Source: Candidatus Omnitrophota bacterium
Lineage (GTDB): Bacteria > Omnitrophota > Gorgyraeia > Duberdicusellales > 4484-171
Assembly: GCA_024231025.1 (NCBI GenBank)
Contig: JAAEQW010000297.1
Coordinates: 14,851-78,850, forward strand
Length of the DNA stretch: 64,000 nucleotides
Direction of reading: 5' to 3'
Below, in pieces: positions 1-20,066 of this stretch (position 1 is its first letter; each line of letters starts with the position of its first letter). The position numbers and the translations under genes were made by a program. The notes under the pieces were generated by a model. It was given only the letters and a program-made list of their open reading frames with translations, was not told where the DNA came from and searched no databases.

Positions 1-1
1 G

Positions 2-571
2 GGTGCGGGAAAAATCTTATCGTTAGAATTTTCTTTATGGTTTAAGGATCAGTTACATAAATTTATTGATAAAGGCGGTCTGGTAATCGGTATTTGTAAT
101 GGATTCCAGGTAATGGTTAAAATGGGCATATTGCCTGATGTTGATTTTTCTCAAAAAGTAACATTAACCGAGAATGATTCCGCGCGTTTTGAAACACGTT
201 GGGTGTATTTGAAAGTTGAAAATACCAGTAGCGCATGGTTAAAGGGGTTGGCAAACATAATAGCCTTACCGATTGCTCATGGTGAGGGAAAATTCTATAC
301 AGATAAGGAAAATTTAGTTAGAATAGAATCTAACAACAGAGTGGCTTTTCGTTATGTTGATCGGTGTGGTTCGCCGGTAGGATATCCGCTGAATCCCAAC
401 GGGTCCTTAGGCGGTATTGCCGGTATTACCGATGCTAGTGGGCGAATTTTAGGGCTTATGCCGCATCCTGAACGGTTTGTTTTTAAGCATCAACATCCTT
501 TCTGGATGAGTGAAGATCATGTGCCTTTTGGATTGCAGATGTTTAAGAACGCAGTAAAATATTTTGAATGA
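2..571 (+). CDS. FGAM synthase glutamine amidotransferase domain (PurQ-type or C-terminal domain of large PurL), 5'-truncated by window edge
   Basis: Frame is open from nt 2. Translation contains the class-I GATase catalytic motif GICNGFQ, plus PIAHGEGKF and MPHPER, typical of FGAM synthase glutaminase. The next gene is purM. Confidence 0.7.
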   Translation, partial: GAGKILSLEFSLWFKDQLHKFIDKGGLVIGICNGFQVMVKMGILPDVDFSQKVTLTENDSARFETRWVYLKVENTSSAWLKGLANIIALPIAHGEGKFYTDKENLVRIESNNRVAFRYVDRCGSPVGYPLNPNGSLGGIAGITDASGRILGLMPHPERFVFKHQHPFWMSEDHVPFGLQMFKNAVKYFE

Positions 572-1560
572 ATATGAAACTTAACTACAAAAAATCCGGA
601 GTAAACATAAAAGCTGCGGATCAATTTGTTAAAAGCATAAAAGGTGCTATTGCAACTAGTGCGATTAGCAAAATTTCTGCTTTTGGTTCTTTGTTTGATC
701 TTAATTCGGTACTTAAAAAATATAAAAATCCAATTTTGGTTTCTTCAACTGATGGCGTAGGAACAAAACTAAAAATCGCACAATCATTAGATATTCACAA
801 TACTATCGGTATTGATTTAGTCGCAATGAACGTTAATGATATTATCTGCCTTGGGGCGAAACCGTTATTCTTTCTGGATTACATTGCCTGTGGTAAAGCT
901 AAGCCTAAAGTGCTGAAAAGCATTGTTTCCGGTATCACTAAAGGTTTAAAAGAGTCTGACTGTGTGCTTTTGGGTGGTGAAACCGCTGAGATGCCGGGGA
1001 TGTATAGTGCTGGCGAGTATGATTTGGCTGGTTTTTGTGTAGGGATCGCTGATCGATCTAAGTTGATAAATGGACAAAAAATAAAACAAGGAGATTGCGT
1101 AATTGGTTTGTCGTCGAGTGGCTTTCACTCTAACGGATATTCTTTGGTTCGAAAAGCTTTAGGTTCAAAAGGCATTAAAAAGCACGCAAAAGCTTTAATT
1201 GTGCCGACTAAGATTTATGTAAAAGGAATACTTGCTCTACTAGATAAAGTGAATGTCAAGGGCATTGCTCACATAACTGGTGGTGCTTTTTATAATAAAG
1301 CTACAAAAATTTTGCCTAATGGATTAGGTATGGTTATTAATAAAAAAACCTTCAATGTTCCAGAAATATTTAAAGTGGTGGCGGCATCTGCTAAGGTAAG
1401 CGAGCGAGAAATGTATACAGTTTTTAACATGGGTATCGGAATGGTTGTCGTTGTTAATGTAAAACAAGCTGAGACTGCGCTTGGAATTCTAAATAAATAC
1501 TACAAGGCGCAGGTCATTGGTGCGATTGATAAGAGTAAAAAAAGGATGGTCTTATATTAA
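568..1560 (+). CDS. purM: phosphoribosylformylglycinamidine cyclo-ligase (AIR synthase)
   Basis: 330 aa with the DGVGTKLKIA PurM N-domain motif. Purine operon context. Confidence 0.9.
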   Translation: MNMKLNYKKSGVNIKAADQFVKSIKGAIATSAISKISAFGSLFDLNSVLKKYKNPILVSSTDGVGTKLKIAQSLDIHNTIGIDLVAMNVNDIICLGAKPLFFLDYIACGKAKPKVLKSIVSGITKGLKESDCVLLGGETAEMPGMYSAGEYDLAGFCVGIADRSKLINGQKIKQGDCVIGLSSSGFHSNGYSLVRKALGSKGIKKHAKALIVPTKIYVKGILALLDKVNVKGIAHITGGAFYNKATKILPNGLGMVINKKTFNVPEIFKVVAASAKVSEREMYTVFNMGIGMVVVVNVKQAETALGILNKYYKAQVIGAIDKSKKRMVLY

Positions 1561-1691
1561 TCTTTTTAAATAATTGTGAATTGCGAATTATGGATTTTGA
1601 ATTTTCTTTTTTTGGAAAAAGCGTATTTTTCGGATTCAATTTGAAATTCAACATTCGTAATTCAAAATTGAGTTAAGGAGGATTTCACGGG

Positions 1692-2981
1692 ATGAAAGTC
1701 TTAGTCATAGGTTCAGGAGGCAGAGAGCATTGCTTGGTTTGGAAATTGGCGCAATCGGCGTCGGTTGACAAAATATACTGCGCGCCAGGTAACGGCGGCA
1801 CCGATTTGATCGCTGAAAATGTGGATATCTCTGTGATGGCCATTGATAAACTATTGGAATTTGCTCTGGAGAATAAAATAGATTTAACAGTGGTCGGGCC
1901 GGAGCTTCCATTAGTTAATGGTATTGTTGATCGTTTTCAGGAAAAAGGGCTAAAAGTATTTGGTCCTACTAAAGACCTTGCCCTTTTAGAAGGGAGTAAG
2001 GTTTTTGCTAAAGAGGCGATGCAAAGATTTAAAATTCCTACTGCGGATTTTGCAGTTTTTGATGATTCCGTAAAAGCTAAAGAATATATTGCCCAAAAGG
2101 GTATTCCAATTGTGATCAAGGCCGATGGTTTAGCTGCCGGTAAAGGAGTTATCGTTTGTAACACCGTTAACGAAGCTTTAGGCGCAGTTGATCTAATAAT
2201 GGAGGAGAAAATATTCGGCCGAGCCGGCAATAAAATTGTTGTTGAAGAATGCTTAGAAGGTGAAGAAGTGTCGCTACTGTTGTTTACTGATGGAGAGTCA
2301 ATTGTTCCGCTGGTCTCCTCGCAAGACCATAAGCGCGCTCTAGATGGCGATCAAGGTCCGAATACCGGAGGAATGGGGGCTTATGCACCGGCTCCAATGC
2401 TTAATGATGGATTTCTAAAAAGAATTAACGATCAGGTATGCCGTCCGCTTGTTGACGGATTAAATAAAGAAGGTACCCCTTATAAAGGTTTACTTTATGT
2501 GGGGCTAATGATGCAAGATGGTCAGCCAAAGGTTTTGGAATTTAATGTTCGTTTTGGTGATCCTGAAACCCAGGCGATTTTGCCTAAATTAAAAAGTGAT
2601 TTAGCTGATTTAATGCTTAAGACGATTGATGGAAAACTCACTAATGTTCATCTGGAGTGGGATGATCGCTACTGTGTTTGCGTGGTATTGGCTTGTGCTG
2701 GATATCCAGGAAATTCACAGAAGGGTGGGGTGATTGAAGGATTAGATGAATTCAAAGATTTAGAAGATGTATATCTTTTTCATGCGGCAACAAAGAAGCA
2801 AATCGAAGATGGCACCGAAAGTATAGTTAGCAATGGTGGGCGAGTGCTAAATCTTGTTGGCTTAGGGCAAACGGTGCATGGTGCTCAGAATAAAGTGTAT
2901 TCTGCAGTTAAGAATGTAAAATTTGAAGGCATGCAATACCGTCATGATATTGGTAATAAGGCATTGCAATTGCCAAAATAA
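1692..2981 (+). CDS. purD: phosphoribosylamine-glycine ligase
   Basis: 429 aa ATP-grasp protein. N-term MKVLVIGSGGREH and the GGMGAY motif are typical of PurD. SD GGAGG upstream. Confidence 0.9.
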   Translation: MKVLVIGSGGREHCLVWKLAQSASVDKIYCAPGNGGTDLIAENVDISVMAIDKLLEFALENKIDLTVVGPELPLVNGIVDRFQEKGLKVFGPTKDLALLEGSKVFAKEAMQRFKIPTADFAVFDDSVKAKEYIAQKGIPIVIKADGLAAGKGVIVCNTVNEALGAVDLIMEEKIFGRAGNKIVVEECLEGEEVSLLLFTDGESIVPLVSSQDHKRALDGDQGPNTGGMGAYAPAPMLNDGFLKRINDQVCRPLVDGLNKEGTPYKGLLYVGLMMQDGQPKVLEFNVRFGDPETQAILPKLKSDLADLMLKTIDGKLTNVHLEWDDRYCVCVVLACAGYPGNSQKGGVIEGLDEFKDLEDVYLFHAATKKQIEDGTESIVSNGGRVLNLVGLGQTVHGAQNKVYSAVKNVKFEGMQYRHDIGNKALQLPK

Positions 2982-2989
2982 ATATTACC

Positions 2990-3140
2990 GAAAAACTTAG
3001 AGCGCAAAGCGTAAAACCATAGCGAAAAATTAAAAATTGTTCGGAAAAGTTTTAAGTTTTAAATTATGGTTCCCCGTATTGGCGGGGTCCCGCAAACAAA
3101 ATATATTAGGGTGCGGGATTTCGCTTTTAGTTTTTAATTT
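2990..3140 (+). repeat. family-1 MITE-like element, copy A (purD-purE spacer)
   Basis: Terminal motifs gcgcaaagcgtaaaaccatagcgaaaaatt ... tttcgcttttagttttt. Internal GC hairpins ccccg..cgggg and tcccgca..tgcggga. Confidence 0.55.
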
Positions 3141-3162
3141 GTAGTTAATAAGGAGGAATGAC

Positions 3163-3618
3163 ATGGCAAAAAAGATTCACGTAATACTAGGAAGTAAAAG
3201 CGATAAAACAGCAATTCAACAGGGTATTGACCTTATGGATAAGTTTGGGGTTGAATATAAGCTTGACATTCTTTCTGCTCATCGTAATGCAGAAAAGCTA
3301 CGAGAGGTTTGTCAGGCAATGGAAAAAGATGGGATAGAGGTGGTTATTGCCTGTGCGGGAATGGCGGCAGCCCTACCGGGGTTTATTGCTGCTTTTGTTG
3401 ATATTCCGGTACTAGGCGTTGCTATGAAAGGCGGCATGATGGATGGATTAGATGCGCTTTTTTCTATGACAAGTATTCCTCGTGGCATAGGACTTGCTTC
3501 TACCGGAGTAGGCAAAAGTGCGTTTGTGAACGCGGTTATTTTTGCCTTATCAATACTTTCCTTAAAAGATAAAGAAAGTCGCACTCAGCTAAAAAGCATT
3601 AAGAAAGAGTTTGAATAA
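3163..3618 (+). CDS. purE: 5-(carboxyamino)imidazole ribonucleotide mutase
   Basis: 151 aa with VILGSKSD, SAHR, AGMAAALPG and PVLGV motifs of PurE. SD AAGGAGG upstream. Confidence 0.8.
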   Translation: MAKKIHVILGSKSDKTAIQQGIDLMDKFGVEYKLDILSAHRNAEKLREVCQAMEKDGIEVVIACAGMAAALPGFIAAFVDIPVLGVAMKGGMMDGLDALFSMTSIPRGIGLASTGVGKSAFVNAVIFALSILSLKDKESRTQLKSIKKEFE

Positions 3619-4682
3619 TGAAAAAGATTTCTTTGGATCCAAAAAATATTGATCATTCTTTAATTAAGGAAGCAGCTAAAGTTTTGACTTCCGGTGGAGT
3701 TGTTGCTTTGCCAACCGAAACCGTTTATGGTTTAGCTGGGCGTCCTGATAAACAGGCAACAGTAGATAAGCTTTATTCAATAAAAAAAAGGCCGAAAGAC
3801 AAGCCATTCAGTATTGCCGTAGATGATCCTGAGAAAGCAATTAGATTTTATTTAGCTACCTTGCCACCGTTTGGATACAGATTGTTAGAAGAATTTTGGC
3901 CGGGGCCGCTTACGGTAGTTTTCTATGACCGCAATGATAAAGCAATAGGCGTGCGTGTGCCTGATAGCCCGATAATTAGAGAAGTTCTGAAAGAAGCAAA
4001 TACACCGGTTTGTCTTCCTTCAGCAAATGTTAGCGGGGAAGGCGAAATTTTATCGGCTGATGGAGTTGAAGAAACTTTTGGTAATGAAGTTGATTTAATA
4101 GTTGATGGTGGGCCCTGCGAACATGGCCGTGCATCAACTGTGTTAGATTTAACTTTTTACCCATTTAAAATATTAAGGCATGGGGTTGCCTCAGAGAAAA
4201 GAATAATCGAGGTTTTTACCCGAAAAAGAATACTTTTTGTTTGCACTGGGAATACTTGCCGTTCACCGATGGCTCAATTTCTTATGCAGATTTACCTAGC
4301 CCAAATGAGCCCATATGCACAGAGCAGATACGAGGTTATTTCGCGGGGGATATCTGCATTTGGCGGATTAATGGCGGCATCCAACGTGATTGAAGTTATT
4401 AAAGAAAAAGAAAAAGTGGATGTTTTAAATTTTGTTTCTCAGAAATTAGACAGATACACTCTTTTATCTTCGGATCTTATTTTTACCATGGAAGACGATC
4501 AACTTAATTACGTTTTAAAATTTGAGCCAACCGTTGAGGGAAGGATTTTTAATTTGAAAAAGTTTTTGCCTGCTGAATTTGAAAATGATATTTCTGATCC
4601 CGTAGGCAAGGGTAAAGAGGTTTATGAGCAACTTTATGAAACTTTGAGTCAGGCGATTAAAGAGCTTATGAATTGGCTGTAA
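3618..4682 (+). CDS. fusion protein: L-threonylcarbamoyladenylate synthase (TsaC/YrdC domain) + low-molecular-weight phosphatase (YwlE-like arginine phosphatase)
   Basis: N-terminal ~195 aa carries VALPTETVYGLAG (YrdC/TsaC). C-terminal ~155 aa carries FVCTGNTCRSPMAQ (CX5R P-loop, almost identical to the B. subtilis YwlE P-loop) and a DPxG loop. Followed by rpiB and glyA, as in the ywlC-ywlE-ywlF-glyA neighbourhood. Confidence 0.75.
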   Translation: MKKISLDPKNIDHSLIKEAAKVLTSGGVVALPTETVYGLAGRPDKQATVDKLYSIKKRPKDKPFSIAVDDPEKAIRFYLATLPPFGYRLLEEFWPGPLTVVFYDRNDKAIGVRVPDSPIIREVLKEANTPVCLPSANVSGEGEILSADGVEETFGNEVDLIVDGGPCEHGRASTVLDLTFYPFKILRHGVASEKRIIEVFTRKRILFVCTGNTCRSPMAQFLMQIYLAQMSPYAQSRYEVISRGISAFGGLMAASNVIEVIKEKEKVDVLNFVSQKLDRYTLLSSDLIFTMEDDQLNYVLKFEPTVEGRIFNLKKFLPAEFENDISDPVGKGKEVYEQLYETLSQAIKELMNWL

Positions 4683-4868
4683 TAAGTTATAAGTTGTAAG
4701 TTGTAAGGATTAAGAAGTTAGCTAAAAACGAAAAACTAAAAGCGAAAAGCCATAATTTAAAACTTAAAATTTATTTCCGGAATAAATAATTATTTTACTT
4801 TTAAATTTTACGCTATGGTTTTACACTTTACGTTCTCAGTTTTTCGTTATGTTGTAATTTATGACTAA
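4683..4868 (+). repeat. family-1 MITE-like element, copy B (tsaC-rpiB spacer), preceded by agttataagttgtaag taagt repeats
   Basis: Inverted terminal repeats aacgaaaaact...ccataatttaaaac / gctatggttttac...cagtttttcgtt around the near-palindromic centre ttatttccggaataaataa. Confidence 0.7.
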
Positions 4869-4884
4869 AAAATGGAGTTGATTA

Positions 4885-5352
4885 ATGAAAATTTCAATTG
4901 CAAGTGATCATCGCGGGTTTAAATTAAAAGCTGTACTAACCGCTTTTTTAGAGTCTAAGGGTCATGTTGTTGTTGATTTTGGAACCCATAGCCCTGATGC
5001 TTGTGATTACCCTGATTATGTATATCCAGCTTGCTTGGCTGTGAAAAATAAAAAAGTAGAACGATCGATAATAATTTGTTATACCGGCATTGGTAGTTGC
5101 ATTGCGGCTAATAAAGTGAAAGGGGTGCGCGCGGCATTAGCTTATAGTCAGAAAAGTGCCACTCTTTCAAGACAGCATAACAATAGTAACGTTTTAGTTT
5201 TACCATCAAATTTATTAAAAAATGACTTAATAAAAAAGCTGATACTAACTTGGTTGAAAGCTGAATTCCAAGGCGGACGACACCATCAAAGAGTAAAAAA
5301 AATCAAAAAAATTGAGGAGAAAGAAAATGCTCAAAGACCTAAAGAAAATTGA
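4885..5352 (+). CDS. rpiB: ribose-5-phosphate isomerase B (RpiB/LacAB family)
   Basis: [15 protein letters not shown] start and [13 protein letters not shown] are typical of RpiB. Basic C-terminal tail overlaps the glyA start. Confidence 0.8.
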
Positions 5353-6574
5353 TCGTCAGATTTATAATAGCGTGCTTCGTGAGTTTGAGCGTCAACGTCA
5401 ACATATTGAATTAATCGCTAGTGAAAATTTTGCACCTTTAGCAGTTATGCAAGCCCAAGGAAGCGTGTTAACCAATAAATATGCCGAAGGGTATCCTGGT
5501 GCGCGTTGGTATGGTGGGTGTGAGTTTGTTGATCAAACTGAAGAGCTAGCAAGAGAAAGAGTAAAGGAGCTTTTTTCTGCTGAATATGCGAATGTTCAGC
5601 CTCATTCAGGTAGTCAGGCTAATATGGCGGTTATGATGGCAGTATTGAAGGCAGGGGATAGCATTTTAGCTATGGACTTGGCTTGCGGCGGTCATCTTTC
5701 TCATGGGCATCCACTAAATTTCAGCGGCAAATTTTATAATATTATTCCTTACGGAGTAGATAAAAACACTGAGTGTATTGATTATAATGAAATCGAAGCA
5801 AAAGCTTTAGAGTGCAAACCGCAAATGATAATTGCCGGTGGCAGTGCTTATCCGCGCATTATTGATTTTGAGAAATTCCGTCAAATAGCTGACAAAGTGG
5901 GTGCTTATCTTTTGGTTGATATGGCTCATTTTGCCGGTTTGGTTGCAGCTAAGATTTATCCTAACCCTTGCCAGTACGCAGAGTTTGTTACTTCAACTAC
6001 ACATAAAACTTTACGTGGTCCTCGAGGTGGTTTTATTCTAGCCAGAGAAGAATTTGCAAAAAAACTTAATACTGCAGTTTTTCCGGGTGTTCAGGGCGGT
6101 CCGCTAATGCATGTTATTGCCGCAAAGGCTGTTGCTTTTGGTCTTGCTTTAGGAGACGATTTCATAGAGTATCAAAAACAAGTTGTTAAAAATGCCGATC
6201 ACTTTGCTAAAGTTATGGAAAAGAAGGGGTATCGAATAGTCAGTGGTGGCACTGATAGCCATCTTTTTCTTCTAGATTTAAGTTCAAAAGACATAAGCGG
6301 TAAAGAAGCTTCTTTAGTTTTAGAAAATACTAATATTACTGTAAATAAAAATCTGATTCCTTTTGATCCTAAGCCACCAGCTGTGGCCAGCGGAATTAGA
6401 ATCGGCACTCCTGCAGTAACCACTCGTGCAATGAGAGAGCGGCAAATGGAAGAAATAGCCGATTTGATAGACCGTGTTCTGATTAACAGAAACGATCAGC
6501 AAGAATTAGAAAAAATTAAAAAAGAGGTAGTTGCTTTGACTGATCAGTTCCCTCTATACCCAGAATTAGATTAA
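5327..6574 (+). CDS. glyA: serine hydroxymethyltransferase
   Basis: Highly conserved SHMT sequence ([24 protein letters not shown]-Lys region [12 protein letters not shown]). Start chosen at the ATG after SD GAGGAG, not the upstream Met of the ORF track. Confidence 0.9.
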
Positions 6575-6575
6575 C

Positions 6576-7031
6576 ATGACAAAAAAAATTAAACGCCCTA
6601 ATTGGAACCAATACTTTATGAAAATGGCACACTTGGCAAGTGAGCGTTCAACTTGTTTGCGCCGAGCGGTTGGGGCGGTTTTAGTTAAGAATAAACAAAT
6701 TCTTGCCACCGGCTATAATGGAGCGCCTACGAATATTTCCCATTGCGAAGATGTTGGATGTCTGCGCCAAAAATTAAAAATTCCCTCTGGACAGCGCCAT
6801 GAGATTTGCCGAGGGCTGCACGCTGAGCAAAATGTAATTCTGCAAGCTGCGCGCCACGGAGTATCTTTATGTGATAGCGTCCTTTACATAACACATACTC
6901 CTTGCAGTATCTGCGCTAAAATGATTATCAATGCCGGAATCAAAGAAATTATCTGTGCCGGTACTTATCCCGATGAAAATGCCCAAACCTTCCTAAAAGA
7001 AGCCAAAATAAAACTAACCAGAATCAAATAA
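6576..7031 (+). CDS. dCMP deaminase (ComEB-like cytidine/deoxycytidylate deaminase)
   Basis: 151 aa with HAEQNVILQAA and PCSICAKMI zinc-binding motifs (H-A-E ... PC..C). Confidence 0.8.
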   Translation: MTKKIKRPNWNQYFMKMAHLASERSTCLRRAVGAVLVKNKQILATGYNGAPTNISHCEDVGCLRQKLKIPSGQRHEICRGLHAEQNVILQAARHGVSLCDSVLYITHTPCSICAKMIINAGIKEIICAGTYPDENAQTFLKEAKIKLTRIK

Positions 7032-7124
7032 TAAATCGAAAGATTTAATTCTATTGAAATCTTCACGTTAGGTGTGAAAAATACTATTGACCGTGAATCG
7101 TTTAGGCTTTAAACTGTAAGTAAG

Positions 7125-7586
7125 ATGAAGTGTCCGTTTTGTAACCATAATGAAGACAAGGTAGTTGATTCTCGTGAAACTTCTGAAGGCTTGGCCATAA
7201 GAAGAAGAAGAGAGTGCATTAATTGCGGTAAGCGTTTTACTACCTATGAATATGTTGAAAAAACACCATTAATGGTTGTTAAAAAGGATGGTCGACGTGA
7301 GCCTTTTAATCGCCAAAAAGTTCTTACCGGCCTGCTAAGTGCCTGTGAAAAACGGCCGATTAGCATGGAGCGTCTCGAGCGCCTTGTTACTGATGTTGAA
7401 GCTGATTTGCAGAAAAAATTTGACCAAGAAGTTGAATCTCGTTTTGTCGGTGAGGCGGTAGTTGAGAGGCTGGCTGAATTAGATGATGTTGCTTATGTTC
7501 GTTTTGCTTCTGTTTATCGCCAATTTAAAGATATCAATCAGTTTATGCGTGAGTTGCGTGAAATTTTGAGTAAACGAATCAAGTAG
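7125..7586 (+). CDS. nrdR: transcriptional repressor NrdR
   Basis: [18 protein letters not shown] zinc ribbon followed by an ATP-cone. 153 aa. Confidence 0.9.
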
Positions 7587-7630
7587 TCTCATAAACCGAA
7601 ATACTTGTCTATTTTCGGCGAAGTTTAATA

Positions 7631-7664
7631 ACACAGATTAATATAAAATCTGTGTATTTTTTTA
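7631..7664 (+). terminator. Rho-independent terminator after nrdR
   Basis: Stem acacagatt / aatctgtgt with an 8-nt loop, followed by the run tattttttt. Confidence 0.6.
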
Positions 7665-7741
7665 TACTTCGGCGATACTTAGTGTTTGTTTTATTAAAAC
7701 TCTGCCTTCTAAGATGAGAAGGCGATGGAAGGTTTTATTCA

Positions 7742-8146
7742 ATGGTAAAATTAGAAATTTCTCAGATTATTATTGACGAAGGTAAAAGTGAACAAGTTAT
7801 TGTGCTTAATGAGTGCGATGGCCCTCGACGTTTACCGATTGTTCTAGGAAGCGCTGAAGCTTATGCGATTAGAGCTCATTTAAGCGGAGTAATTACACGA
7901 CGGCCGCTTACGCATGATCTAATGTATTCTTTTTTGAACACTATGGAAATTGAGTTAGAAAAAGTGATTATTGATAAATTAGTTGATAACACTTTTCATG
8001 CAAAGATCTATTTAATAACAAAAGATGATACCCTTAAAGTGGTGGACGCTAGGCCTTCTGATGGCATTGCTTTAGCGGTAAGAACCTCTTCGCCGATTTT
8101 TGCCGAGGAAAGCATTTTTGATCAATTGTCGAAAAAAGCGCAATGA
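7742..8146 (+). CDS. bifunctional nuclease domain protein (DUF151/BFN)
   Basis: 134 aa with the RPLTHDL hallmark and overall BFN-like layout. 4-nt overlap with cca. Confidence 0.65.
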   Translation: MVKLEISQIIIDEGKSEQVIVLNECDGPRRLPIVLGSAEAYAIRAHLSGVITRRPLTHDLMYSFLNTMEIELEKVIIDKLVDNTFHAKIYLITKDDTLKVVDARPSDGIALAVRTSSPIFAEESIFDQLSKKAQ

Positions 8147-9573
8147 ACCTATCTACTAATCTCAAAAAAATTCCTTATCTTGAGCAGGTGTCTCTAATTG
8201 CTTCGCGTAGAAAAACTACCGTTTGGCTTGTCGGTGGTTTTTTAAGGGATATTTACCTAAAGAAAAAGAAGGATTATATTGATTTTGATTTTTGTGTGGA
8301 AAATAAAACCCGTAGCTTAGCTTGTGATTTTGCCAAAAAAATAGAGGCAAAATTTATTGTATTAGACAAACAGCAGCAAAGTTATCGTGTAGTGAAAAAA
8401 TTGGCTAATAAAATCTACACTTACGATTTTACTGCCCTTAGGGGGGTGGATTTTAAAGATGACCTTTCATTGCGTGATTTTTCAATTAACACACTGGCAA
8501 TTGATCTAACCTCTAAAAACAAAAGAATAATTGATTACTATGGCGGGCGCAATGATCTTAAAAGTGGTATTATTCGTATTGTTCAAAAAAGAGTTCTCCT
8601 AGATGACCCATTAAGGATACTGAGAGGATTTTCTTTTATGGCTAATTACCGATTCAGAATTGAAGCAAAAACCATTAAAGAGATCACCCGTTGTAAGAAA
8701 CATCTTAGTAAAATTTCCGGTGAAAGAGTAGGGTGCGAACTGATGAAAATTTTTGCTGCGGACAATTGTTTTGCGGCAATTAAAAAGGCTGATGCTCTTG
8801 GGGTGCTTGATGCACTTATTCCGGATATCAGTAAGTGCAGGGGGGTTATACAAGGGGGGTATCACCACTTGGATGTTTGGAAGCATTCCCTTGAAACTCT
8901 TCGTCAGTTTGAAATTTTGCAGCATAAAATTTTTAATGACCACAAAGATGTTGCCAAATACATCAGTGAGGATTTAGCTCAAGGCAGAAAAAGAAGCCAG
9001 ATTATAAAATTGGCATGTCTTTTGCATGATATTGGTAAGCCAGTAGCAAAAAAAAAGAAAGACAAAAAAACTATTTTCCACAAACATGAAAAAATTGGCC
9101 GTGATCTGATTACCAAGATAGCATATAATTTACGCCTCTCTTCTAAAGAAACAGAAACTTTAAAACGATTAATATTTTGGCACCTTCGCCCCGGGTATTT
9201 AGCTGATCAAATTACACCGTCAAAGAGGGCGGTGTATCGTTTTTTTCGTGATACAGACATTGACGGTGCAGCGGTAATTTTATTATCTCTGGCAGATTGG
9301 CGAGCAACGCGTGGACCATTGACTGATTACGCAAAAAGGCGCCGGCATGAAAAAATTATGATTGGATTAGTTGACTGGTATTTCGCTGATAAAAAGAAAA
9401 AGCCATTAGTTAGGATTATCGATGGTTATGGCTTAATGAAGAAATTCAATCTTTTACCCTCGCCGTTAATTGGTAAAATCCTAAAAAAAGTTGATGAAGA
9501 ATACGCTTTAGGTCATATTTCTTCAAAAACACAAGCCTACGCTATTGCTAGAAAACTCATTGGAAAACAGTAG
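8143..9573 (+). CDS. cca: CCA tRNA nucleotidyltransferase with C-terminal HD phosphohydrolase domain
   Basis: Head domain GGFLRD...IDFDF (DxD) and RDFTINTLA. HD domain HHLDVWKHS / LLHDIGKP. Confidence 0.8.
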   Translation: MNLSTNLKKIPYLEQVSLIASRRKTTVWLVGGFLRDIYLKKKKDYIDFDFCVENKTRSLACDFAKKIEAKFIVLDKQQQSYRVVKKLANKIYTYDFTALRGVDFKDDLSLRDFSINTLAIDLTSKNKRIIDYYGGRNDLKSGIIRIVQKRVLLDDPLRILRGFSFMANYRFRIEAKTIKEITRCKKHLSKISGERVGCELMKIFAADNCFAAIKKADALGVLDALIPDISKCRGVIQGGYHHLDVWKHSLETLRQFEILQHKIFNDHKDVAKYISEDLAQGRKRSQIIKLACLLHDIGKPVAKKKKDKKTIFHKHEKIGRDLITKIAYNLRLSSKETETLKRLIFWHLRPGYLADQITPSKRAVYRFFRDTDIDGAAVILLSLADWRATRGPLTDYAKRRRHEKIMIGLVDWYFADKKKKPLVRIIDGYGLMKKFNLLPSPLIGKILKKVDEEYALGHISSKTQAYAIARKLIGKQ

Positions 9574-9599
9574 CAAGGGGGGGGCAATGCATGTTATTT

Positions 9600-9648
9600 T
9601 ATACCTTTTAGGGTATAAAGTATGGTGTTTTATACCTTTTAAGGTATA
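9600..9648 (+). promoter_or_regulatory. two palindromic operators TATACC-N6-GGTATA (predicted HipB binding sites), with a third half-site at 9672-9677
   Basis: tataccttttagggtata (9600-9617) and tataccttttaaggtata (9631-9648) are near-identical inverted repeats immediately upstream of the HTH gene. Confidence 0.45.
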
Positions 9649-9664
9649 ATTTTTTCAAAAAAGA

Positions 9665-9693
9665 TTGAAATTATACCCTATATGTGATATATT
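9665..9693 (+). promoter_or_regulatory. sigma70-like promoter of the hipBST operon (TTGAAA-17-TATATT), with a TATACC half-site in the spacer
   Basis: -35 ttgaaa at 9665-9670 and -10 tatatt at 9688-9693. The ATG follows about 10 nt later, so the mRNA would be nearly leaderless. Confidence 0.35.
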
Positions 9694-9702
9694 TGTGTTG
9701 TT

Positions 9703-9930
9703 ATGAAGTCAATTAGCTTAAATTCACATGCATTAAATATTTCTTCTCAAATAAAAAAGTTGAGAAAAAGTAATAAGTTGACTCAAATTGAATTTGCTAA
9801 ACGCGCTGGAGTTGGTTTACGTTTCTTAAGAGAGCTCGAAAATGGTAAAATAACAGTTAGGATGGATAAACTTATGCAAGTCTTGGATTTTTTGGGATAT
9901 CATTTAGAATTAAAGAAGAACGAATACTGA
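9703..9930 (+). CDS. hipB: XRE-family HTH DNA-binding protein, HipB-like
   Basis: 75 aa with a KLRKSNKLTQIEFAKRAGVGLRFLRELENGK helix-turn-helix. First gene of a tight three-gene operon with HipA-fragment genes. Confidence 0.7.
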   Translation: MKSISLNSHALNISSQIKKLRKSNKLTQIEFAKRAGVGLRFLRELENGKITVRMDKLMQVLDFLGYHLELKKNEY

Positions 9931-9936
9931 TACATT

Positions 9937-10263
9937 ATGGATGCATTAAGAAAAGCTCGGGTATTTTATAGAAATGAATTGGCGGGCTATATTTCAGAAA
10001 TACAGAGTGGCTATGTTTTTCAATATGATTATGAATTTTTGAAAAAAAACATTTCAATTTCAGCATCTTTACCTTACAGAGAAGAGCCTTATCATTCAAA
10101 AGAATTATTTCCTTTTTTTAAAGGACTTCTTCCAGAAGGATGGTATTTAAGTATTGTAAGCGCTACGCAAAAGGTTGATAGCAAAGATTCCTTTGGTTTA
10201 TTATTGGCGAGTGCCAATAGTGATACGATCGGTGCAGTTACCGTGACAAAGGTGGAAGAATAA
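9937..10263 (+). CDS. hipS: HipS-like protein (stand-alone HipA N-terminal subdomain)
   Basis: 108 aa. FKGLLPEGW and SDTIGAVTV match the HipA N-subdomain motifs (FDNLLPEG, GRDCVGAV). Stop is 1 nt before the kinase gene. Confidence 0.7.
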   Translation: MDALRKARVFYRNELAGYISEIQSGYVFQYDYEFLKKNISISASLPYREEPYHSKELFPFFKGLLPEGWYLSIVSATQKVDSKDSFGLLLASANSDTIGAVTVTKVEE

Positions 10264-10264
10264 A

Positions 10265-11134
10265 ATGAACAAAAAGCTATTTAGAGAAATGTTTAATTCC
10301 TCTAAGTGCCCAATCATAAATTTTAGTTTGAGGGATATGTCGCAAAAGGCGCAAGAATTGGCAGGTAAGCTTTCTATTTCTGGTGTTCAACCTAAGTTAT
10401 CGGTCAAGTTGGATAAGAAAAGTAATGAATTAATCCCTGTGGCCCAAGGCGGAGAATATATTTTGAAACCACAAACCTTTACTTTTTTAAATATCCCAGA
10501 AAATGAACAATGCTGCATGGATATTGCCGAGAGTTTGGGTGTATCTATTCCGCTTCATTGCTTGATTCCCTTAAAGGATGATAGTCTTGCTTATGTGGTC
10601 AAGAGATTTGATAGGGAAAAAAGCATAAAAATCCATCAGGAAGACTTTACGCAAATTCTCGAAGAAACAGATAAGTATAGAGGGTCGGTAGAACAAATAG
10701 GTCGAAAAATAAAAGAAAAATCATCCGCACCAGGTTATGATGCGCAATTATTTTTTGAAATGGTTGTTCTTAATTTTATTCTTGGTAATGGTGATGCTCA
10801 CTTAAAAAATTATTCGCTTTTATATAGAGATAAAGATAATGTTCGCCTAACACCCGCTTATGATATTGTATGCTCAAAACTGGTTCTTCCCAATGAGGAA
10901 GATTCGGCTATCGCCATTAATGGCAAAAAAAATAGATTAAAGATAGAGGATTTTAATGAGTTGGCTGAATATTTAAGTGTTCCTTTAAAAGTTCGGTACG
11001 AAAAGTTTGAAAATAAATTTACTGCTATGAGAGAAATTATAAATTGTTCTAGTATTGCAAAGGAAAAACAGCAGCAATTTCTTGAAATAATAAGCGAAAG
11101 ATTATCCCGTTTAGGGTTATCAAATGATAACTAG
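10265..11134 (+). CDS. hipT: HipT-like Ser/Thr kinase (HipA C-terminal kinase core lacking the N-subdomain)
   Basis: 289 aa. Gly-rich loop LSISGVQPKLS has the SIS motif characteristic of HipT. Catalytic NGDAHLKNYS (HipA D..H.KN) and PAYDIV. No N-terminal HipA subdomain. Confidence 0.75.
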   Translation: MNKKLFREMFNSSKCPIINFSLRDMSQKAQELAGKLSISGVQPKLSVKLDKKSNELIPVAQGGEYILKPQTFTFLNIPENEQCCMDIAESLGVSIPLHCLIPLKDDSLAYVVKRFDREKSIKIHQEDFTQILEETDKYRGSVEQIGRKIKEKSSAPGYDAQLFFEMVVLNFILGNGDAHLKNYSLLYRDKDNVRLTPAYDIVCSKLVLPNEEDSAIAINGKKNRLKIEDFNELAEYLSVPLKVRYEKFENKFTAMREIINCSSIAKEKQQQFLEIISERLSRLGLSNDN

Positions 11135-11152
11135 GAGTAATCCTGTTATTTG

Positions 11153-11180
11153 TTGTCAATAACCTCATTTGTTATATAAT
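11153..11180 (+). promoter_or_regulatory. sigma70-like promoter (TTGTCA-16-TATAAT) for the Macro-Nudix gene
   Basis: ttgtca at 11153-11158 and tataat at 11175-11180. Confidence 0.35.
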
Positions 11181-11203
11181 GAGGGGTAAAAAATCGGAGT
11201 AAA

Positions 11204-12187
11204 ATGTTTAATTTTGGTAAATCGAAGGAAAAATTTTTTTCACCAATAAGACAGGCAAGTGTTGTAGTTAATGGTATTGAAGTCTCTGTTGTTCAGGGGG
11301 ACATTACTGAAATTGATACCCAAGTGATAGTTAATGAGGCAAATAATCGTCTTTACATGGAGGATGGTCTTGCTGCGATAATTAAAAATAAAGGCGGCGC
11401 AATAATTGAAGAATCAGCCAAAAAACAAGCCCCGATTAAAGTTGGAGATGTTATTCTAACTACTGCCGGAGCGTTAAAGGCCGACTATATTATTCATGCT
11501 GCAACGACTGGCCTCAGTGCGAAAATTACTGATTCGATTATCCGAAATGCGACTTATCGTTCGTTACTTGCTGCTCACAAAGAAAAGATTGAATCTATCG
11601 CATTTCCGGTTTTAGGGCGTGAGTCAGGTGACCTTTCTTATGAGGTGGTATCAAAGTTGATGGCCCAGGAGGCTTTTCGTTATATTAAGGCAGTGGCATC
11701 ACCCACCATAACAAAAATAGTGTTTGTCTCATATTCAGAAGATGTTTTTGATGTTTTTAAGCAGAATATATGTGATTATCTTGAACATTTAACTCATCCC
11801 GGGCCTTTTGTTGTTGTTGATGGGATAGTTGAATATCAAGGTGGGATAGTAATGATTAAGCGTAGCAATCCTCCGTTTGGCTATGCGCTTCCTGGCGGAT
11901 TTGTAGAGTACGGTGAAAGTGTTGAAAAAAGTGTTGCGCGGGAAGTAAAAGAGGAAACAAGTCTTAATTTTACGGATATTAAGCAATTCAAGGTTTACTC
12001 AGATAGCGAGCGCGATCCGCGCTTTCATACGGTATCGATTGTTTTTGTTGGTAAGGGTCAAGGCACCTTAAAGGCTGCTTCTGATGCTAAAGATGCTTTT
12101 GTGGTTAAACTAGATTCCTTTCCTGAGGGTATTGTTTTTGATCATACAAAGATAATTGAAGATTACCTTGCTTCTAAGAAAACTTGA
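11204..12187 (+). CDS. Macro domain - NUDIX hydrolase fusion protein (ADP-ribose processing)
   Basis: N-terminal half has Macro motifs (VNEANNRL...GGAI, GDVILTTAGALKADYIIHAATTG, SIAFPVLGRESGDLS). C-terminal half has the Nudix box GGFVEYGESVEKSVAREVKEETSL. Confidence 0.75.
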   Translation: MFNFGKSKEKFFSPIRQASVVVNGIEVSVVQGDITEIDTQVIVNEANNRLYMEDGLAAIIKNKGGAIIEESAKKQAPIKVGDVILTTAGALKADYIIHAATTGLSAKITDSIIRNATYRSLLAAHKEKIESIAFPVLGRESGDLSYEVVSKLMAQEAFRYIKAVASPTITKIVFVSYSEDVFDVFKQNICDYLEHLTHPGPFVVVDGIVEYQGGIVMIKRSNPPFGYALPGGFVEYGESVEKSVAREVKEETSLNFTDIKQFKVYSDSERDPRFHTVSIVFVGKGQGTLKAASDAKDAFVVKLDSFPEGIVFDHTKIIEDYLASKKT

Positions 12188-12193
12188 ATAAAA

Positions 12194-12345
12194 GCCAATA
12201 ACCAAGATGCAATAACCAAATAATAATCAATTACCAAATTTCAATAACCAAGTGGTTTGATTATTGTATCTTGATCATTGGGATTTGTTTGCCTGCCCGC
12301 CGGCAGGCGGGTGTCTTGTTTCTTGGAAATTGGTTATTGTAAACT
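12194..12345 (+). repeat. 'ataaccaa' intergenic repeat element, copy 1, with GC-rich hairpin cccgcc-ggca-ggcggg
   Basis: Shares the ccaataaccaaga...caagatgcaa...accaataat...ttggttattgtaa...gtatcttgat pattern with 60246-60375. Internal inverted repeats ataaccaag / cttgg..ttggttat. Confidence 0.6.
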
Positions 12346-12364
12346 GTTTAACGAGGAGATATAA

Positions 12365-14290
12365 ATGGGCGACAATATAGTATATAAAATTCTTCGCAAG
12401 CATCTTGTTTCGGGAGATTTAGTACCCGGTCAGGAAGTTGGGATAAAGATCGATCAGACATTAACTCAAGATGCTACAGGCACGATGGCTTATTTGCAGT
12501 TTGAAGCAATGGGCATTGATCGCGTGAAAACTGAACTCTCCGTAAGCTATGTTGATCATAATACTATTGGGCAGGGGTTTGAAAACGCCGACGATCATAA
12601 ATATTTGCAAAGTGTAGCTGCAAAATACGGTGTTTATTTTTCTCGAGCGGGCAATGGTATATGCCATCAGGTTCATCTGGAAAGATTTGCTAAGCCGGGG
12701 AAAACCTTACTCGGTAGTGATAGCCATACTCCTACTGGTGGAGGTATTGGAGCGATTGCTATTGGGGCAGGTGGTCTTGATGTTGCGTGCGCAATGGGAG
12801 GGGGTGCATTTTATCTGGTAGCACCTGAAGTAATTAAGGTCGAGTTAACTGGAAAGCTTCGTGATTGGGTATCGGCTAAAGATGTTATTCTGCATTTATT
12901 AGGTATTCTTTCTACAAAGGGTAACGTTAATAAAGTAATTGAATATAGCGGAGAAGGCCTAAAAACACTTTCTGTGCCTGGGCGGGCAACGATTACCAAT
13001 ATGGGTGCTGAAACAGGCGCTACTACAAGTATTTTTCCTTCTGATGAAGTAACTAAACAATTTTTGACTGCGCAAAATAGAGCGGATGATTTTTGTCCAC
13101 TTGTGGCTGATGAAGGTGCTAAGTATTGCAAGGTAATAAAGATTAATTTGTCAGAAGTTGTTGCGATGGCTGCTTTGCCTCATTCACCTGGCAATGTTGT
13201 TACGGTAAAAGAAATTGCCGGTAAAAAAGTAGATCAAGTTGCAATTGGAAGTTGTACCAACGGATCATTAAAAGATCTTACAATCGTTGGTGAAATATTG
13301 GCCGGTAAAACAATACATCAAGGGCTTTCAGTTATTGTTTCTCCTGGTTCGCGGCAGGTTTTTTCTATGATATCGGCCGATGATACTTTAAATAATATAA
13401 TTAATTCCGGTGCTAGGATAATGGAGCCGACTTGTGGATTTTGTATCGGTAGTGGGCAGTCACCATGCACTGATGGAATATCAGTGCGAACAAACAATCG
13501 CAATTTTTGTGGTCGTAGCGGTACTGAGTCAGGACAAATATATCTGGTATCTCCTCAAATTGCAGCATTAGCTGCGATTAACGGTGAATTTGTTGATCCA
13601 TTTTCTGCCCAAGAAAATTATCCTCAGGTTAGCAATGCTGAGCATTTTTACGTTGATGATCGCATGATTATTCCTCCTCCCAATGATCCTTGTGGTGTTG
13701 AGATTTTTCGCGGTCCAAATATCGGTCAGCCACCAACAAATATTGCCCTTGTCGATAGTTTATCTGGAGAAATCCTTGTAAAAGTTGGTGACAAGATTAC
13801 AACCGACCATATCATGCCTGCCGGGCCAAGATTAAAGTATCGCTCTAATATTGATAAGTATTCAGAGTTTGTGTTTGAGGGGGTTGATTCGCAATTTGCG
13901 GTTAATGCAAAAAAATTACGCGATCAAAAAAAATCTGTATTTATCTTAGCCGGGGAAAGTTATGGTCAAGGTTCAAGTAGGGAGCATGCGGCAATGTGCC
14001 CGATGTATTTGGGGGTAAGGGCCGTGATGGCAAAGTCATTTGAAAGAATCCATATAACCAATCTAATTAATTTCGGTATTTTACCGCTAACCTTTATTAA
14101 TGCCGGCGATTATGAATTGCTGCAAAAAGGATTACTTATTCAAATAAATAATATCATTGAATGTTTAAATAACAATAACAGCATTACTGTTTTAAGTGGC
14201 GACATTAAGATAGAAATGAATTGTACACTTTCCTTACGGCAAAGACAAATCGTCCAAGCCGGTGGGCTATTAAATTATACTCGACAGTGA
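12365..14290 (+). CDS. aconitase-family hydratase, fused large + swivel domains (Aquifex/archaeal-type putative aconitate hydratase)
   Basis: 641 aa. N-terminal DQTLTQDATG and Fe-S Cys region (SCTNGS, CGFCIG). C-terminal swivel motif GESYGQGSSREHAA. Confidence 0.75.
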   Translation: MGDNIVYKILRKHLVSGDLVPGQEVGIKIDQTLTQDATGTMAYLQFEAMGIDRVKTELSVSYVDHNTIGQGFENADDHKYLQSVAAKYGVYFSRAGNGICHQVHLERFAKPGKTLLGSDSHTPTGGGIGAIAIGAGGLDVACAMGGGAFYLVAPEVIKVELTGKLRDWVSAKDVILHLLGILSTKGNVNKVIEYSGEGLKTLSVPGRATITNMGAETGATTSIFPSDEVTKQFLTAQNRADDFCPLVADEGAKYCKVIKINLSEVVAMAALPHSPGNVVTVKEIAGKKVDQVAIGSCTNGSLKDLTIVGEILAGKTIHQGLSVIVSPGSRQVFSMISADDTLNNIINSGARIMEPTCGFCIGSGQSPCTDGISVRTNNRNFCGRSGTESGQIYLVSPQIAALAAINGEFVDPFSAQENYPQVSNAEHFYVDDRMIIPPPNDPCGVEIFRGPNIGQPPTNIALVDSLSGEILVKVGDKITTDHIMPAGPRLKYRSNIDKYSEFVFEGVDSQFAVNAKKLRDQKKSVFILAGESYGQGSSREHAAMCPMYLGVRAVMAKSFERIHITNLINFGILPLTFINAGDYELLQKGLLIQINNIIECLNNNNSITVLSGDIKIEMNCTLSLRQRQIVQAGGLLNYTRQ

Positions 14291-14316
14291 TTACTACTCA
14301 GCAGAATCCAGCACAA

Positions 14317-16356: not shown

Positions 16357-16895
16357 GAGTTATAAAAGGAATACATAAGGGAAGAGTTATTTATTGTGCG
16401 GATTCAGTGCGTCCGGTTTCTTCGCGAGTGCGTGAATCATGCTTTGATATATTAGCGTATAGCCTAAAAGGGGCGAATGTATTAGATCTTTTTGCCGGAA
16501 GTGGAGCCTTGGGGATTGAGGCTCTTTCATCGGGGGCCAATAAGTGTATTTTCATTGATAGTAATCGAAAATCTATTAAAATTATAGAAAAGAATCTTGA
16601 AATTCTTGGCCTCTCTACAAACAGTGTATACCTAAAGGATTCCTTTGCTAGCATTGAGTTTTTGAGTAAAAGGCGTGACAAATTTGACCTTATTTTTTTA
16701 GATCCGCCATATCATGAAGGCAGCCTTAAGAAAGTCTTGCAAATGCTATCTGAATATGATATATTGAGCCCCTTCGGTTTATTAGTGGGGTTTTGTTTCG
16801 AAAAAGATGATTATTTGAAAAATAGTGAAAAGTTTGCTTTGATCCAAAAGAAAAAATACGGTCAAACCCTTCTTTTAATCTATAAAAAACAATGA
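16353..16895 (+). CDS. rsmD: 16S rRNA (guanine966-N2)-methyltransferase RsmD
   Basis: LDLFAGSGALGIEALSSGA and FLDPPY motifs. 180 aa. Conserved rsmD-coaD pairing. Confidence 0.8.
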   Translation: MRVIKGIHKGRVIYCADSVRPVSSRVRESCFDILAYSLKGANVLDLFAGSGALGIEALSSGANKCIFIDSNRKSIKIIEKNLEILGLSTNSVYLKDSFASIEFLSKRRDKFDLIFLDPPYHEGSLKKVLQMLSEYDILSPFGLLVGFCFEKDDYLKNSEKFALIQKKKYGQTLLLIYKKQ

Positions 16896-17395
16896 AAAAA
16901 GCTATTTGTCCGGGTACATTTGATCCCATAACTAATGGGCACATCGATATAATAGAGCGTGCGGCTTCTATTTTTGATAGTGTGATTGTTGCAGTAGTTA
17001 AAAACTCTTCCAAGAACACATTTTTCCCGTATTCTCAGCGCTTAAAGCTAGTTAAAGAGGCAACAAAAAACATTAAGGGGGTTAGCGTTGAGGGGTTTGA
17101 CGGCTTGGTCGTTGATTTTGCCTTTAAAAAGAATGTAAAGATTATCGTTAGGGGTTTGCGAATGATATCTGATTTCGAATATGAGTTTCAAATGGCTTTA
17201 ACCAATCGTAATCTGACTAAAACCGTTGAAACAATTTTTTTAATGCCTCATCCCCAATATTCATACATTTCATCGCGGTTGATCAAAGAGGCAGCTTTTT
17301 TAGGTGCGGATTTAAAGAATTTTTTACCAAAAGTAGTAACAAAAGCCCTCAAGAGTAAGTTTAATGCAGATAGAGATAGAAAAAATAAGAGATGA
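16892..17395 (+). CDS. coaD: phosphopantetheine adenylyltransferase
   Basis: AICPGTFDPITNGHIDII (T/HxGH). 167 aa. Confidence 0.9.
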   Translation: MKKAICPGTFDPITNGHIDIIERAASIFDSVIVAVVKNSSKNTFFPYSQRLKLVKEATKNIKGVSVEGFDGLVVDFAFKKNVKIIVRGLRMISDFEYEFQMALTNRNLTKTVETIFLMPHPQYSYISSRLIKEAAFLGADLKNFLPKVVTKALKSKFNADRDRKNKR

Positions 17396-17771: not shown

Positions 17772-17830
17772 GTTATAAGTCGTAAAACTTACGACTTAAA
17801 ACTTAAAACTTACAACTTACGACTATAAAA
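17762..17830 (+). repeat. 'taagt' palindromic spacer between yceD and rpmF
   Basis: Perfect hairpin taagtcgtaa-aac-ttacgactta. The motif acttacgact + AAGGAGG recurs upstream of ftsQ at 49331-49352. Confidence 0.5.
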
Positions 17831-17840
17831 GGAGGATACT

Positions 17841-19965: not shown

Positions 19966-20066
19966 ATTAGGAATTATAAATTTTGAATTGATTTGATGTG
20001 TCACAAAATTACAATTTCCTGTATCCTATTTAATTTAATAACAAAGCAATAAAGATCGGAGGATAA

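Follow-up and report, generated by a model that had tools for sequence, protein, structure and literature searches.

Why should five operon spacers, between genes that are functionally unrelated to one another, all hold versions of the same AT-rich inverted repeat? This question is raised by the 64-kb stretch of DNA analysed here (64,000 nucleotides of contig JAAEQW010000297.1, Candidatus Omnitrophota), which is called the window throughout. An earlier note, made from the letters of the window, had described related elements in at least five spacers and had likened them to MITEs, the miniature transposable elements with inverted repeats. All five were recovered at or near the positions that it had named, and they belong to one repeat family, here called Family-1, with three full-length copies (A, B and C) and two solo T-rich arms (D and E). 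We read Family-1 as a selfish, non-autonomous foldback element that was acquired horizontally, tolerated as a hairpin, and subsequently reshaped by slippage and the loss of arms, and we give this reading a probability of roughly 0.55.

A repeat family in five operon spacers

The copies in the window, and one insert nested within them, are as follows.

4718-4848, plus strand: copy A, full-length (L arm 4720-4769, loop 4770-4796, R arm 4797-4848), between Sua5-LMWPTP (stop 4682) and rpiB (start 4885); from alignment and profile matches.
28613-28745, minus strand: copy B, full-length (R-type arm 28616-28665, loop 28666-28692, L-type arm 28693-28743), between an MBL-fold gene (stop 28591) and a xerD-like gene (start 28752); from profile matches.
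2985-3148, minus strand: copy C, full-length (R-type arm 2989-3039, short loop, L-type arm 3050-3071 plus 3119-3148), occupying the space between the purD stop (2981) and the purE ribosome-binding site (3150); from alignment to A and B and profile matches.
3072-3118, plus strand: a 47-nt insert nested in the L arm of copy C, with two GC-rich hairpins, CCCCG..CGGGG and TCCCGCA..TGCGGGA.
34002-34053, plus strand: copy D, a solo R-type arm in the spacer between ribF and mraZ, T-rich on the sense strand.
40795-40848, plus strand: copy E, another solo R-type arm, more degenerate, in the spacer between murF and mraY.

Copies A and B (4715-4846 against the reverse complement of 28616-28747) are identical at 119 of 132 positions, or 90%, over a stretch that includes the non-periodic loop. 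The 43-nt block in which the earlier note had counted a single mismatch (4721-4763 against the reverse complement of 28699-28741) was confirmed as part of this longer similarity. Copy C has the same ends as A and B, and the alignment places a 16-nt deletion in its loop in addition to the 47-nt insertion. These matches lie far beyond chance: the R-arm 19-mer TTTTACGCTATGGTTTTAC, with up to three mismatches allowed, matches only the five spacers (0.07 matches expected from shuffles), and the L-arm 20-mer CCATAATTTAAAACTTAAAA occurs exactly in three of the five (0.09 expected).

The copies occupy the gap between stop and start nearly exactly, and the spacers with copies A and B have a GC content of 23-24%. 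Pfam identified the neighbours of the five spacers as GARS (purD) and AIR carboxylase (purE), Sua5-LMWPTP and rpiB, an MBL-fold gene and a XerD-like gene, RibF and MraZ, and MurF and MraY; the description of a discrete, dispersed, non-coding inverted repeat, set inside operons in both orientations, holds. Copy D is embedded in a composite of other heptad arrays and GC-rich hairpins, and copy E stops 22 nt short of the mraY start codon, with no Shine-Dalgarno sequence visible. The start codons of the xerD-like gene (28740-28752) and of mraY (40848-40870) are preceded by a T-rich Family-1 arm without a recognisable Shine-Dalgarno sequence; purE and rpiB retain theirs (AAGGAGG and GGAG, respectively).

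The window as a whole has a GC content of 37%, and all of its substantial genes lie on the plus strand. Its Sua5-phosphatase protein is a 100% match to a protein from a metagenome-assembled genome (MAG) named ‘Candidatus Omnitrophica bacterium’, and the other matches, at no more than 62% identity, are all from Omnitrophota. Judged by these protein matches, the window DNA is Omnitrophota.

Arms built from ordered heptads

Full copies share a common layout, with a 50-nt A-rich L arm, an AT-rich loop of 10-27 nt, and a 50-nt T-rich R arm. The two arms complement each other, giving an imperfect foldback with the termini AGCKAAAA...TTTTCGCT. Each arm is a degenerate array of six to eight units of 7 nt (heptads); for example, the L arm of copy A reads AGCTAAA, AACGAAA, AACTAAA, AGCGAAA, AGCCATA, ATTTAAA, ACTTAAA. 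Tandem Repeats Finder (TRF) reported a period of 7 or 14 in every arm, with 72-84% matches and three to six copies. When self-identity was measured in segments of 42 nt, lag 7 was the sole raised lag, and in non-coding DNA only (mean 0.366 versus 0.28-0.30 for other lags); a lag-7 identity of at least 0.66 was reached in 2.2% of non-coding segments and in none of the coding DNA.

The heptads of an arm are different units in a set order, and it is the 50-nt arm as a whole that is conserved. Furthermore, the L and R arms are related yet distinct conserved sequences (for example, CCATAATTYAAAACTYAAAAC versus TATGGYTTTRCRTTTTGCGC), and the asymmetry between L (..GCGAAAAACCATAATTYAAAACTYAAAAC) and R (..TTTTRAATTTTGAGYTATGGYTTTRCRTTTTGCGCTTTTCGTTTTTCGCT) is kept across lineages. 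The earlier note had seen arms rich in cgaaaa and ttttcg around an AT palindrome. The arms stand, although as heptad arrays, and the central core TTCCGGAA is only partly palindromic. That description did not include the 7-nt period, the difference in sequence between the L and R arms, or the occurrence of the element in another phylum.

Empty junctions in related genomes

The nearest relatives among the fetched loci (L082-L085, 47% GC) keep the gene order purQ-purM-purD-purE-tsaC-rpiB-glyA-deaminase, with 60-76% amino acid identity. Their spacers measure 10 nt between purM and purD, 8-11 nt between purD and purE, and 8 nt between tsaC and rpiB, and no lag-7 arrays were found in these four loci. 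The corresponding spacers of the window measure 131, 181 and 202 nt. Because the junctions of the relatives are only 8-11 nt long, the long spacers of the window are additions in its own lineage and not as conserved regulatory regions.

Occurrence in other lineages

A scan with the 20-mer covered one genome per species together with JGI metagenomes. It led to about 45 loci in other genomes and metagenomes in which similarity runs well past the seed, reaching 129 nt at 77.5%; the family is thus not confined to the few spacers of the window, and such confinement is what the earlier note had named as counting against its reading. By their NCBI titles, five of the species genomes are from Atribacterota (Caldatribacteriota MAG251, Sediminicultor tertius, Sediminicultor sextus, Atribacteria 4572_76, and an Atribacterota MAG), and homologous copies also lie in many sediment contigs, one of which (L029) is Atribacteria by its protein-cluster names. 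The closest foreign copies (L065/L068, L004, L012, L041 and L020) come from hosts labelled ‘marine sediment metagenome’ or not labelled at all, and a few loci carry the labels Spirochaetes, Clostridia or ‘bacterium’, which could not be confirmed. None of these loci showed nucleotide-level similarity to genes of the window.

The 20-mer seed biases the sample towards a particular L arm. A profile was therefore built solely from R arms outside the window, mostly of Atribacterota type, which had never been used for ascertainment. Applied to the 64 kb of the window, this profile found exactly the five Family-1 sites, with eight arm matches at E values of 4e-11 to 1e-7. The next match had an E value of 0.018, and the other heptad arrays of the window were not matched. 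Both solo arms were recovered, copy D at an E value of 5e-11 (and at 1.8e-7 with another model built without it) and copy E at 4.5e-8. In the foreign contigs, the L arms that had not been ascertained by the seed were one or two bases off the 20-mer. On this comparison of sequences, Family-1 across lineages is homology of a defined element and not convergence of low-complexity DNA.

Family-1 is dense in the foreign contigs, with up to six arms per 7-14 kb, and the 20-mer had no match in any other Omnitrophota species genome, at one genome per species. Since the element is dense in the one group and absent by 20-mer from other species of the other, an Atribacterota reservoir and horizontal acquisition are suggested, and we infer that the element probably entered the Omnitrophota lineage from Atribacterota.

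Heptad-periodic hairpins with A-rich and T-rich arms and the same 20-mer were also seen in L008/L062 (labelled Elusimicrobia), L020, and L046/L074. An example from contigs labelled with other phyla reads AAGTGTA, AAGTGTA, AAGTTTA ... ACTTATA, ACTTTTA and lies upstream of a ribosome-binding site. Hairpins of heptads may occur in phyla other than Atribacterota and Omnitrophota.

Placement and variation of copies

Placement was surveyed in 47 non-redundant copies, none of which lies inside an open reading frame (ORF). Where both neighbouring genes could be called (34 copies), the flanking genes are co-directional in 31 cases and convergent in one. Orientation relative to transcription is mixed, with four full copies in the same direction and eight in the opposite direction, and L halves divided eight to eight, which speaks against a strand-specific RNA gene and against a riboswitch-like leader.

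The near-identical orthologous copies in L065 and L068 differ solely by two indels within the arrays, of 7 nt and 28 nt, and other near-identical pairs differ by indels of 7, 8 and 16-17 nt.

Proposed origin and spread of Family-1

The course of events that we propose starts from what was observed directly, namely the discreteness of the element and the structure of its copies, its homology across lineages, the empty sites of relatives, its strictly intergenic placement in either orientation, and the heptad-unit indels. Family-1 would have entered the Omnitrophota lineage horizontally, probably from Atribacterota, and settled between co-directional genes whose spacers were originally 8-11 nt. 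There it would be co-transcribed with the operon, and within the mRNA it would fold into a long AU-rich hairpin, with the upstream stop and the downstream start drawn together at its base. Insertions were tolerated probably because closure of the hairpin holds the stop and start adjacent. Later change would have come mainly from the gain or loss of whole heptads by slippage, and the loss of one arm would have given rise to solo arms such as D and E.

Several points weigh against this reading. No flush target-site duplication (TSD) was found at copies A, B or C, with boundaries set from their alignment and from the copies in other lineages (flanking sequences AGTT and ATGT for A, AATC and CAAT for B, TATT and AATA for C). 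No parent insertion sequence (IS) came to light: none with these termini is present in the window or in about 600 kb of fetched loci, and no pair of L and R arms lies 0.7-3 kb apart in any locus. As the earlier note had stated, the window has no transposase (the Y1 type included) among all 64 of its main ORFs, and the XerD-like protein is the only recombinase. Three scans of IMG/VR for a viral carrier gave chance matches or nothing. Transposition of Family-1 is accordingly deduced and not observed, and its census in the host is that of a single 64-kb window of a MAG. The empty sites are known from distant relatives (about 60-76% amino acid identity), so the insertions can be neither dated nor delimited to the base. 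At least four other families of heptad hairpins in the window hint at a common generative process or a host factor, and the bias in folding of the sense strand, described below, could reflect function at the RNA level and not mere tolerance. Finally, flank-pair BLAST at 59 sites found no whole-copy presence or absence among near-identical Atribacterota-type contigs. Because these contigs differ by indels only, the copies appear to be inherited vertically at the level of strains, with arms changing mostly in heptad-sized steps. The ‘recent mobility’ of the earlier note is thus not supported, the only differences being indels of 7, 8, 16-17 and 28 nt, and any mobility of Family-1 would be slow or episodic.

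A 3-nt duplication of TNA type (TTA, TCA or TAA) was considered and rejected, as it arises only with shifted boundaries.

The class to which the element belongs can be narrowed by the same observations. Family-1 has terminal inverted repeats, multiple dispersed copies, and 8-11-nt empty junctions in relatives, as MITEs do. The missing flush TSD sets it apart from classical MITEs in one defining feature, although its distribution is still MITE-like; the earlier label is apt for a dispersed inverted repeat and not in the strict sense, there being neither a TSD nor a parent IS. Repetitive extragenic palindromes (REPs) and REPINs are a poorer fit, since the arms are about 50 nt long and AT-rich and have no GTAG head. 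The lack of a TSD also argues against a classical DDE transposase. The candidate movers that are left are a hairpin-specific enzyme (IS200/RAYT-like) or recombination or template switching between heptad arrays.

A broader version of the foldback reading is tentative. Family-1 might be one member of a hitherto undescribed prokaryotic class of ‘heptad foldback’ elements that spreads within genomes and between phyla (from Atribacterota to Omnitrophota, and perhaps to others) without TSDs, a proposal that we think has a limited chance of being correct. Spread would depend on some enzyme that recognises hairpins or heptads, or on template switching, and the other heptad families would come from the same machinery.

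RNA folding and alternative explanations

The full copies A-C fold into long imperfect hairpins that are more stable than shuffled controls (z -2.6 to -6.3). Copy A gives -23.7 kcal/mol (z -2.6) on the plus strand and -29.8 kcal/mol (z -3.4) on the minus strand, the sense-strand RNA hairpin of copy B gives -39.3 kcal/mol (z -6.3), and copy C gives -45.3 kcal/mol (z -3.1). The solo arms do not fold alone relative to shuffles (z -0.4 for D and +0.8 for E). Folding of each copy had been put forward in the earlier note as a check. Of 20 heptad hairpins, 12 have the greater stability in the sense-strand RNA, and with larger margins, up to -19.6 kcal/mol (ViennaRNA; hand-computed Wilcoxon p about 0.04). 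This bias is consistent with transcription through the heptad hairpins.

These results bear most directly on the proposal that the hairpin benefits its host, as an AU-rich stem in the polycistronic mRNA that serves processing or stability (an RNase III site or a barrier to 3'-exonucleases) or tunes translational coupling. ERIC, Correia and REP elements of other bacteria have been shown to play roles in RNA processing and stability. The significant folding of full copies, the greater stability of the sense strand, the nearly exact filling of the gap from stop to start, and the persistence of copies at orthologous sites across related strains are all in line with such a role. Against it, orientation is mixed, the sense strand of copy A folds less well than its complement, the same junctions in relatives function with 8-11 nt, and the solo arms are unfolded. 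In addition, RNAalifold gave no consensus structure in a fixed register (nine out-of-register pairs, -0.19 kcal/mol), and transcription-associated C-to-T mutation is another possible source of the sense bias. On balance, a host-beneficial RNA hairpin, the main rival of the foldback reading, seems rather unlikely. Covariation was dropped as evidence because the arms pair in shifting heptad registers.

Matches to known RNA families were also sought. Rfam at gathering thresholds gave no match to the copies, and with E values up to 5 it placed only hairpins of plant miRNA precursors over them, far below threshold; the sub-threshold rows for snR50, mir-129 and CRISPR-DR66 fall outside the copies or touch no more than the edges of copy B.

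Alternatively, the arms may act at the level of DNA, as a platform of cooperative 7-bp sites for a DNA-binding protein that reads heptads. The ribbon-helix-helix omega repressor of plasmid pSM19035 binds arrays of 7-bp heptads, direct or inverted, and offers an analogy. In Geobacter metallireducens, arrays of heptanucleotides have been proposed as sites of a global regulator (PMC2700814), and this precedent includes four or five tandem heptanucleotides in inverted pairs. The strict 7-nt periodicity, confined to non-coding DNA, and the existence of several heptad families with the same architecture would suit a platform of this kind. Many unrelated heptads would, on the other hand, need many proteins or one that reads shape, and no candidate was identified; moreover, the flanking genes have no function in common and the arrays are absent from the nearest relatives. 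We regard such a platform as improbable.

Intrinsic and possibly bidirectional terminators or attenuators, with an A-rich tract upstream and a U-rich tract downstream of a hairpin, are a still less probable explanation. Whichever way a copy is oriented, its 5' arm is A-rich and its 3' arm U-rich, and both copy C and the AACCAAT hairpin at 12187-12345 have central GC-rich hairpins followed by T-rich heptads. The stems of A and B, however, are purely AU-rich, and a simple terminator scan of positions 1-20000 of the window, a range that holds copies A and C and leaves B, D and E outside, flagged neither copy. The host operons (pur genes and the division and cell-wall, or dcw, cluster) must be read through, and convergent flanking genes, as noted above, are found at one of 34 copies only. 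The earlier suggestion that the elements are terminators or small-RNA genes thus found no backing in the mixed orientation, the Rfam search or the terminator scan of copies A and C.

Independent local origin by slippage in each spacer, with A/T-rich convergence and no mobility or transfer, is scarcely credible: heptad-unit indels do dominate between orthologous copies and other heptad arrays do lie in many spacers, but the proposal is largely refuted by the 132 nt that A and B share at 90% with the non-periodic loop included, by L and R arms that differ from each other and are conserved in both Omnitrophota and Atribacterota-type contigs, and by an R-arm profile from outside the window that ignores its other heptad arrays.

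Comparison with known repeats

Several known types of repeat share features with Family-1. ERIC/IRU elements of Enterobacteriaceae and Correia/NEMIS elements of Neisseria are, like Family-1, imperfect palindromes of about 100-150 bp that have no ORF and lie in intergenic regions in both orientations. ERIC and Correia elements are co-transcribed and form long hairpins in mRNA, and Correia elements have TA duplications and IS-like terminal inverted repeats. There is no sequence relationship to either, and Family-1 differs in being AT-rich and heptad-periodic, in having arms whose length varies in 7-nt steps, and in lacking a TSD. Classical prokaryotic MITEs are likewise small, non-coding and dispersed, with terminal inverted repeats and empty sites in relatives; in Family-1, nearly the whole element is inverted repeat and no flush TSD is present at A, B or C.

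REP/REPIN elements, which are mobilised by RAYT, are portrayed in three reports as hairpins in inverted pairs that are strictly extragenic, have no TSD, reach high copy numbers and can be nested (PMC3116915, PMC3337134, PMC3733652). REPs are GC-rich palindromes of 20-40 nt with a GTAG or CGTC head, whereas Family-1 has AT-rich arms of 50 nt and no such head. The STRR sequences of cyanobacteria are intergenic, multicopy tandem arrays of four to six heptanucleotides. Geobacter metallireducens has multicopy heptanucleotide elements that are intergenic, sometimes in inverted pairs, and of unknown function (PMC2700814), and an excess of heptamers is noted in a further report (PMC4692102). STRR and Geobacter arrays repeat a single unit almost exactly, while a Family-1 arm is an ordered series of different heptads that is paired with a second arm and copied as a unit. 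Eukaryotic foldback (FB) elements have long inverted arms made of degenerate short sub-repeats, with variable arm length and little or no centre. They are kilobase-scale and eukaryotic, with TSDs and known transposases; Family-1 is bacterial, measures 130 nt and has no TSD. By analogy, the architecture of Family-1 would be most like that of miniature eukaryotic foldback elements, and its genomic niche most like that of ERIC and Correia.

A search of the full-text literature returned no account of such repeats in Omnitrophota or Atribacterota. Dispersed palindromic intergenic repeats and the heptamer arrays of Geobacter and cyanobacteria were already known; the features of special interest are a construction from ordered heptads that is common to several families, and the cross-phylum range of a purely non-coding element. 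A 130-nt non-coding element whose L/R asymmetry is common to two deeply separated, uncultivated phyla of anoxic sediments provides a compact marker of DNA traffic between phyla. The element also indicates that operon junctions that are normally 8-11 nt can take in hairpins of 130-200 nt, even in essential operons for purine biosynthesis and the cell wall. Its 7-nt construction resembles that of the heptamer arrays in cyanobacteria and Geobacter, which are still unexplained, a question that a cultured Atribacter could make tractable. On a practical level, repeats of this type inflate intergenic length, may break MAG assemblies, and can mislead the calling of start codons, as at ORF 60319 (below).

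In L009, from about position 1895 onward, a run of Ns (masked sequence or a scaffold gap) starts inside a Family-1 copy, which suggests that these repeats may break or confuse short-read assemblies.

Other repeat families in the window

At least four other families of heptad hairpins, with the units GAATTGC, AAGTTGT, AGACCAT and AACCAAT, occupy spacers of the window, and a second type of repeat consists of GC-rich hairpins of the form TCCCGY..RCGGGA, located by a regular-expression census.

1563-1690, 19950-19989, 17772-17832, 22312-22411 and 33884-33916: other heptad arrays.
33842-33876, 34058-34075, 58455-58487, 12187-12345 and 60239-60380: other heptad arrays.
4684-4716, plus strand: array abutting copy A (AAGTTAT, AAGTTGT, AAGTTGT, AAGGATT, AAGAAGT; TRF period 7, 94% matches).
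3072-3118, 33938-33983, 49273-49320, 61211-61226, 61282-61346 and 63466-63491: GC-rich TCCCGY..RCGGGA hairpins.

The array at 4684-4716 lies outside Family-1, being absent beside copies B and C, and several heptad families share spacers. In-register continuity between this AAGTTGT array and copy A was discounted as not significant, as four of seven phases look alike in A-rich heptads. The AGACCAT array begins within the 3' end of ribF and seems to be interrupted by the composite insert at 33877-34057. In the AACCAAT family, an R arm (60319-60380) extends over the TTG that was assigned as the start of ORF 60319-60912, and the Pfam match of this ORF begins at residue 25; its true start is therefore probably downstream of the repeat.

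The TCCCGY..RCGGGA hairpins come mostly as tandem pairs, one of them nested in copy C, and are of REP-like size with no GTAG head. In Atribacterota-type copies, the loop beside the L arm often holds GC-rich GTAGGGGTCGGATTTATCCGACCC...GGGCTTGATAAATCAAGCCCCTAC hairpins, which have a GTAG/CTAC head, form inverted pairs and are REP/REPIN-like. These GTAG...CTAC hairpins are separate elements nested in Family-1 loops (L029, L006, L010, L026, L045, L054, L063, L075 and L077). For example, the block in L029 (10070-10255) is missing at the orthologous site in L060 (around 770-800), a parallel to the insert in copy C.

Other features of the window

Three successive ORFs (269, 398 and 647 amino acids) at 49361-53355 directly follow ddl, at the place where a dcw cluster would have ftsQ-ftsA-ftsZ. 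None of the three has a Pfam match at E values up to 1e-6, and they may be division proteins that have diverged strongly, or replacements for them. A module resembling the hipBA toxin-antitoxin system lies at about 9700-11134. Its HipA is split into an ORF for the N-terminal domain (9937-10263) and one for the C-terminal domain (10265-11134), and a small unannotated ORF, which looks like a helix-turn-helix protein, precedes it within a 363-nt ‘spacer’. Finally, a cobalamin riboswitch (Rfam RF00174, 90.5 bits) was identified at 60978-61186, with a gene for a corrinoid adenosyltransferase (60319-60912) upstream and one for a TonB-dependent receptor (61277-63508) downstream.

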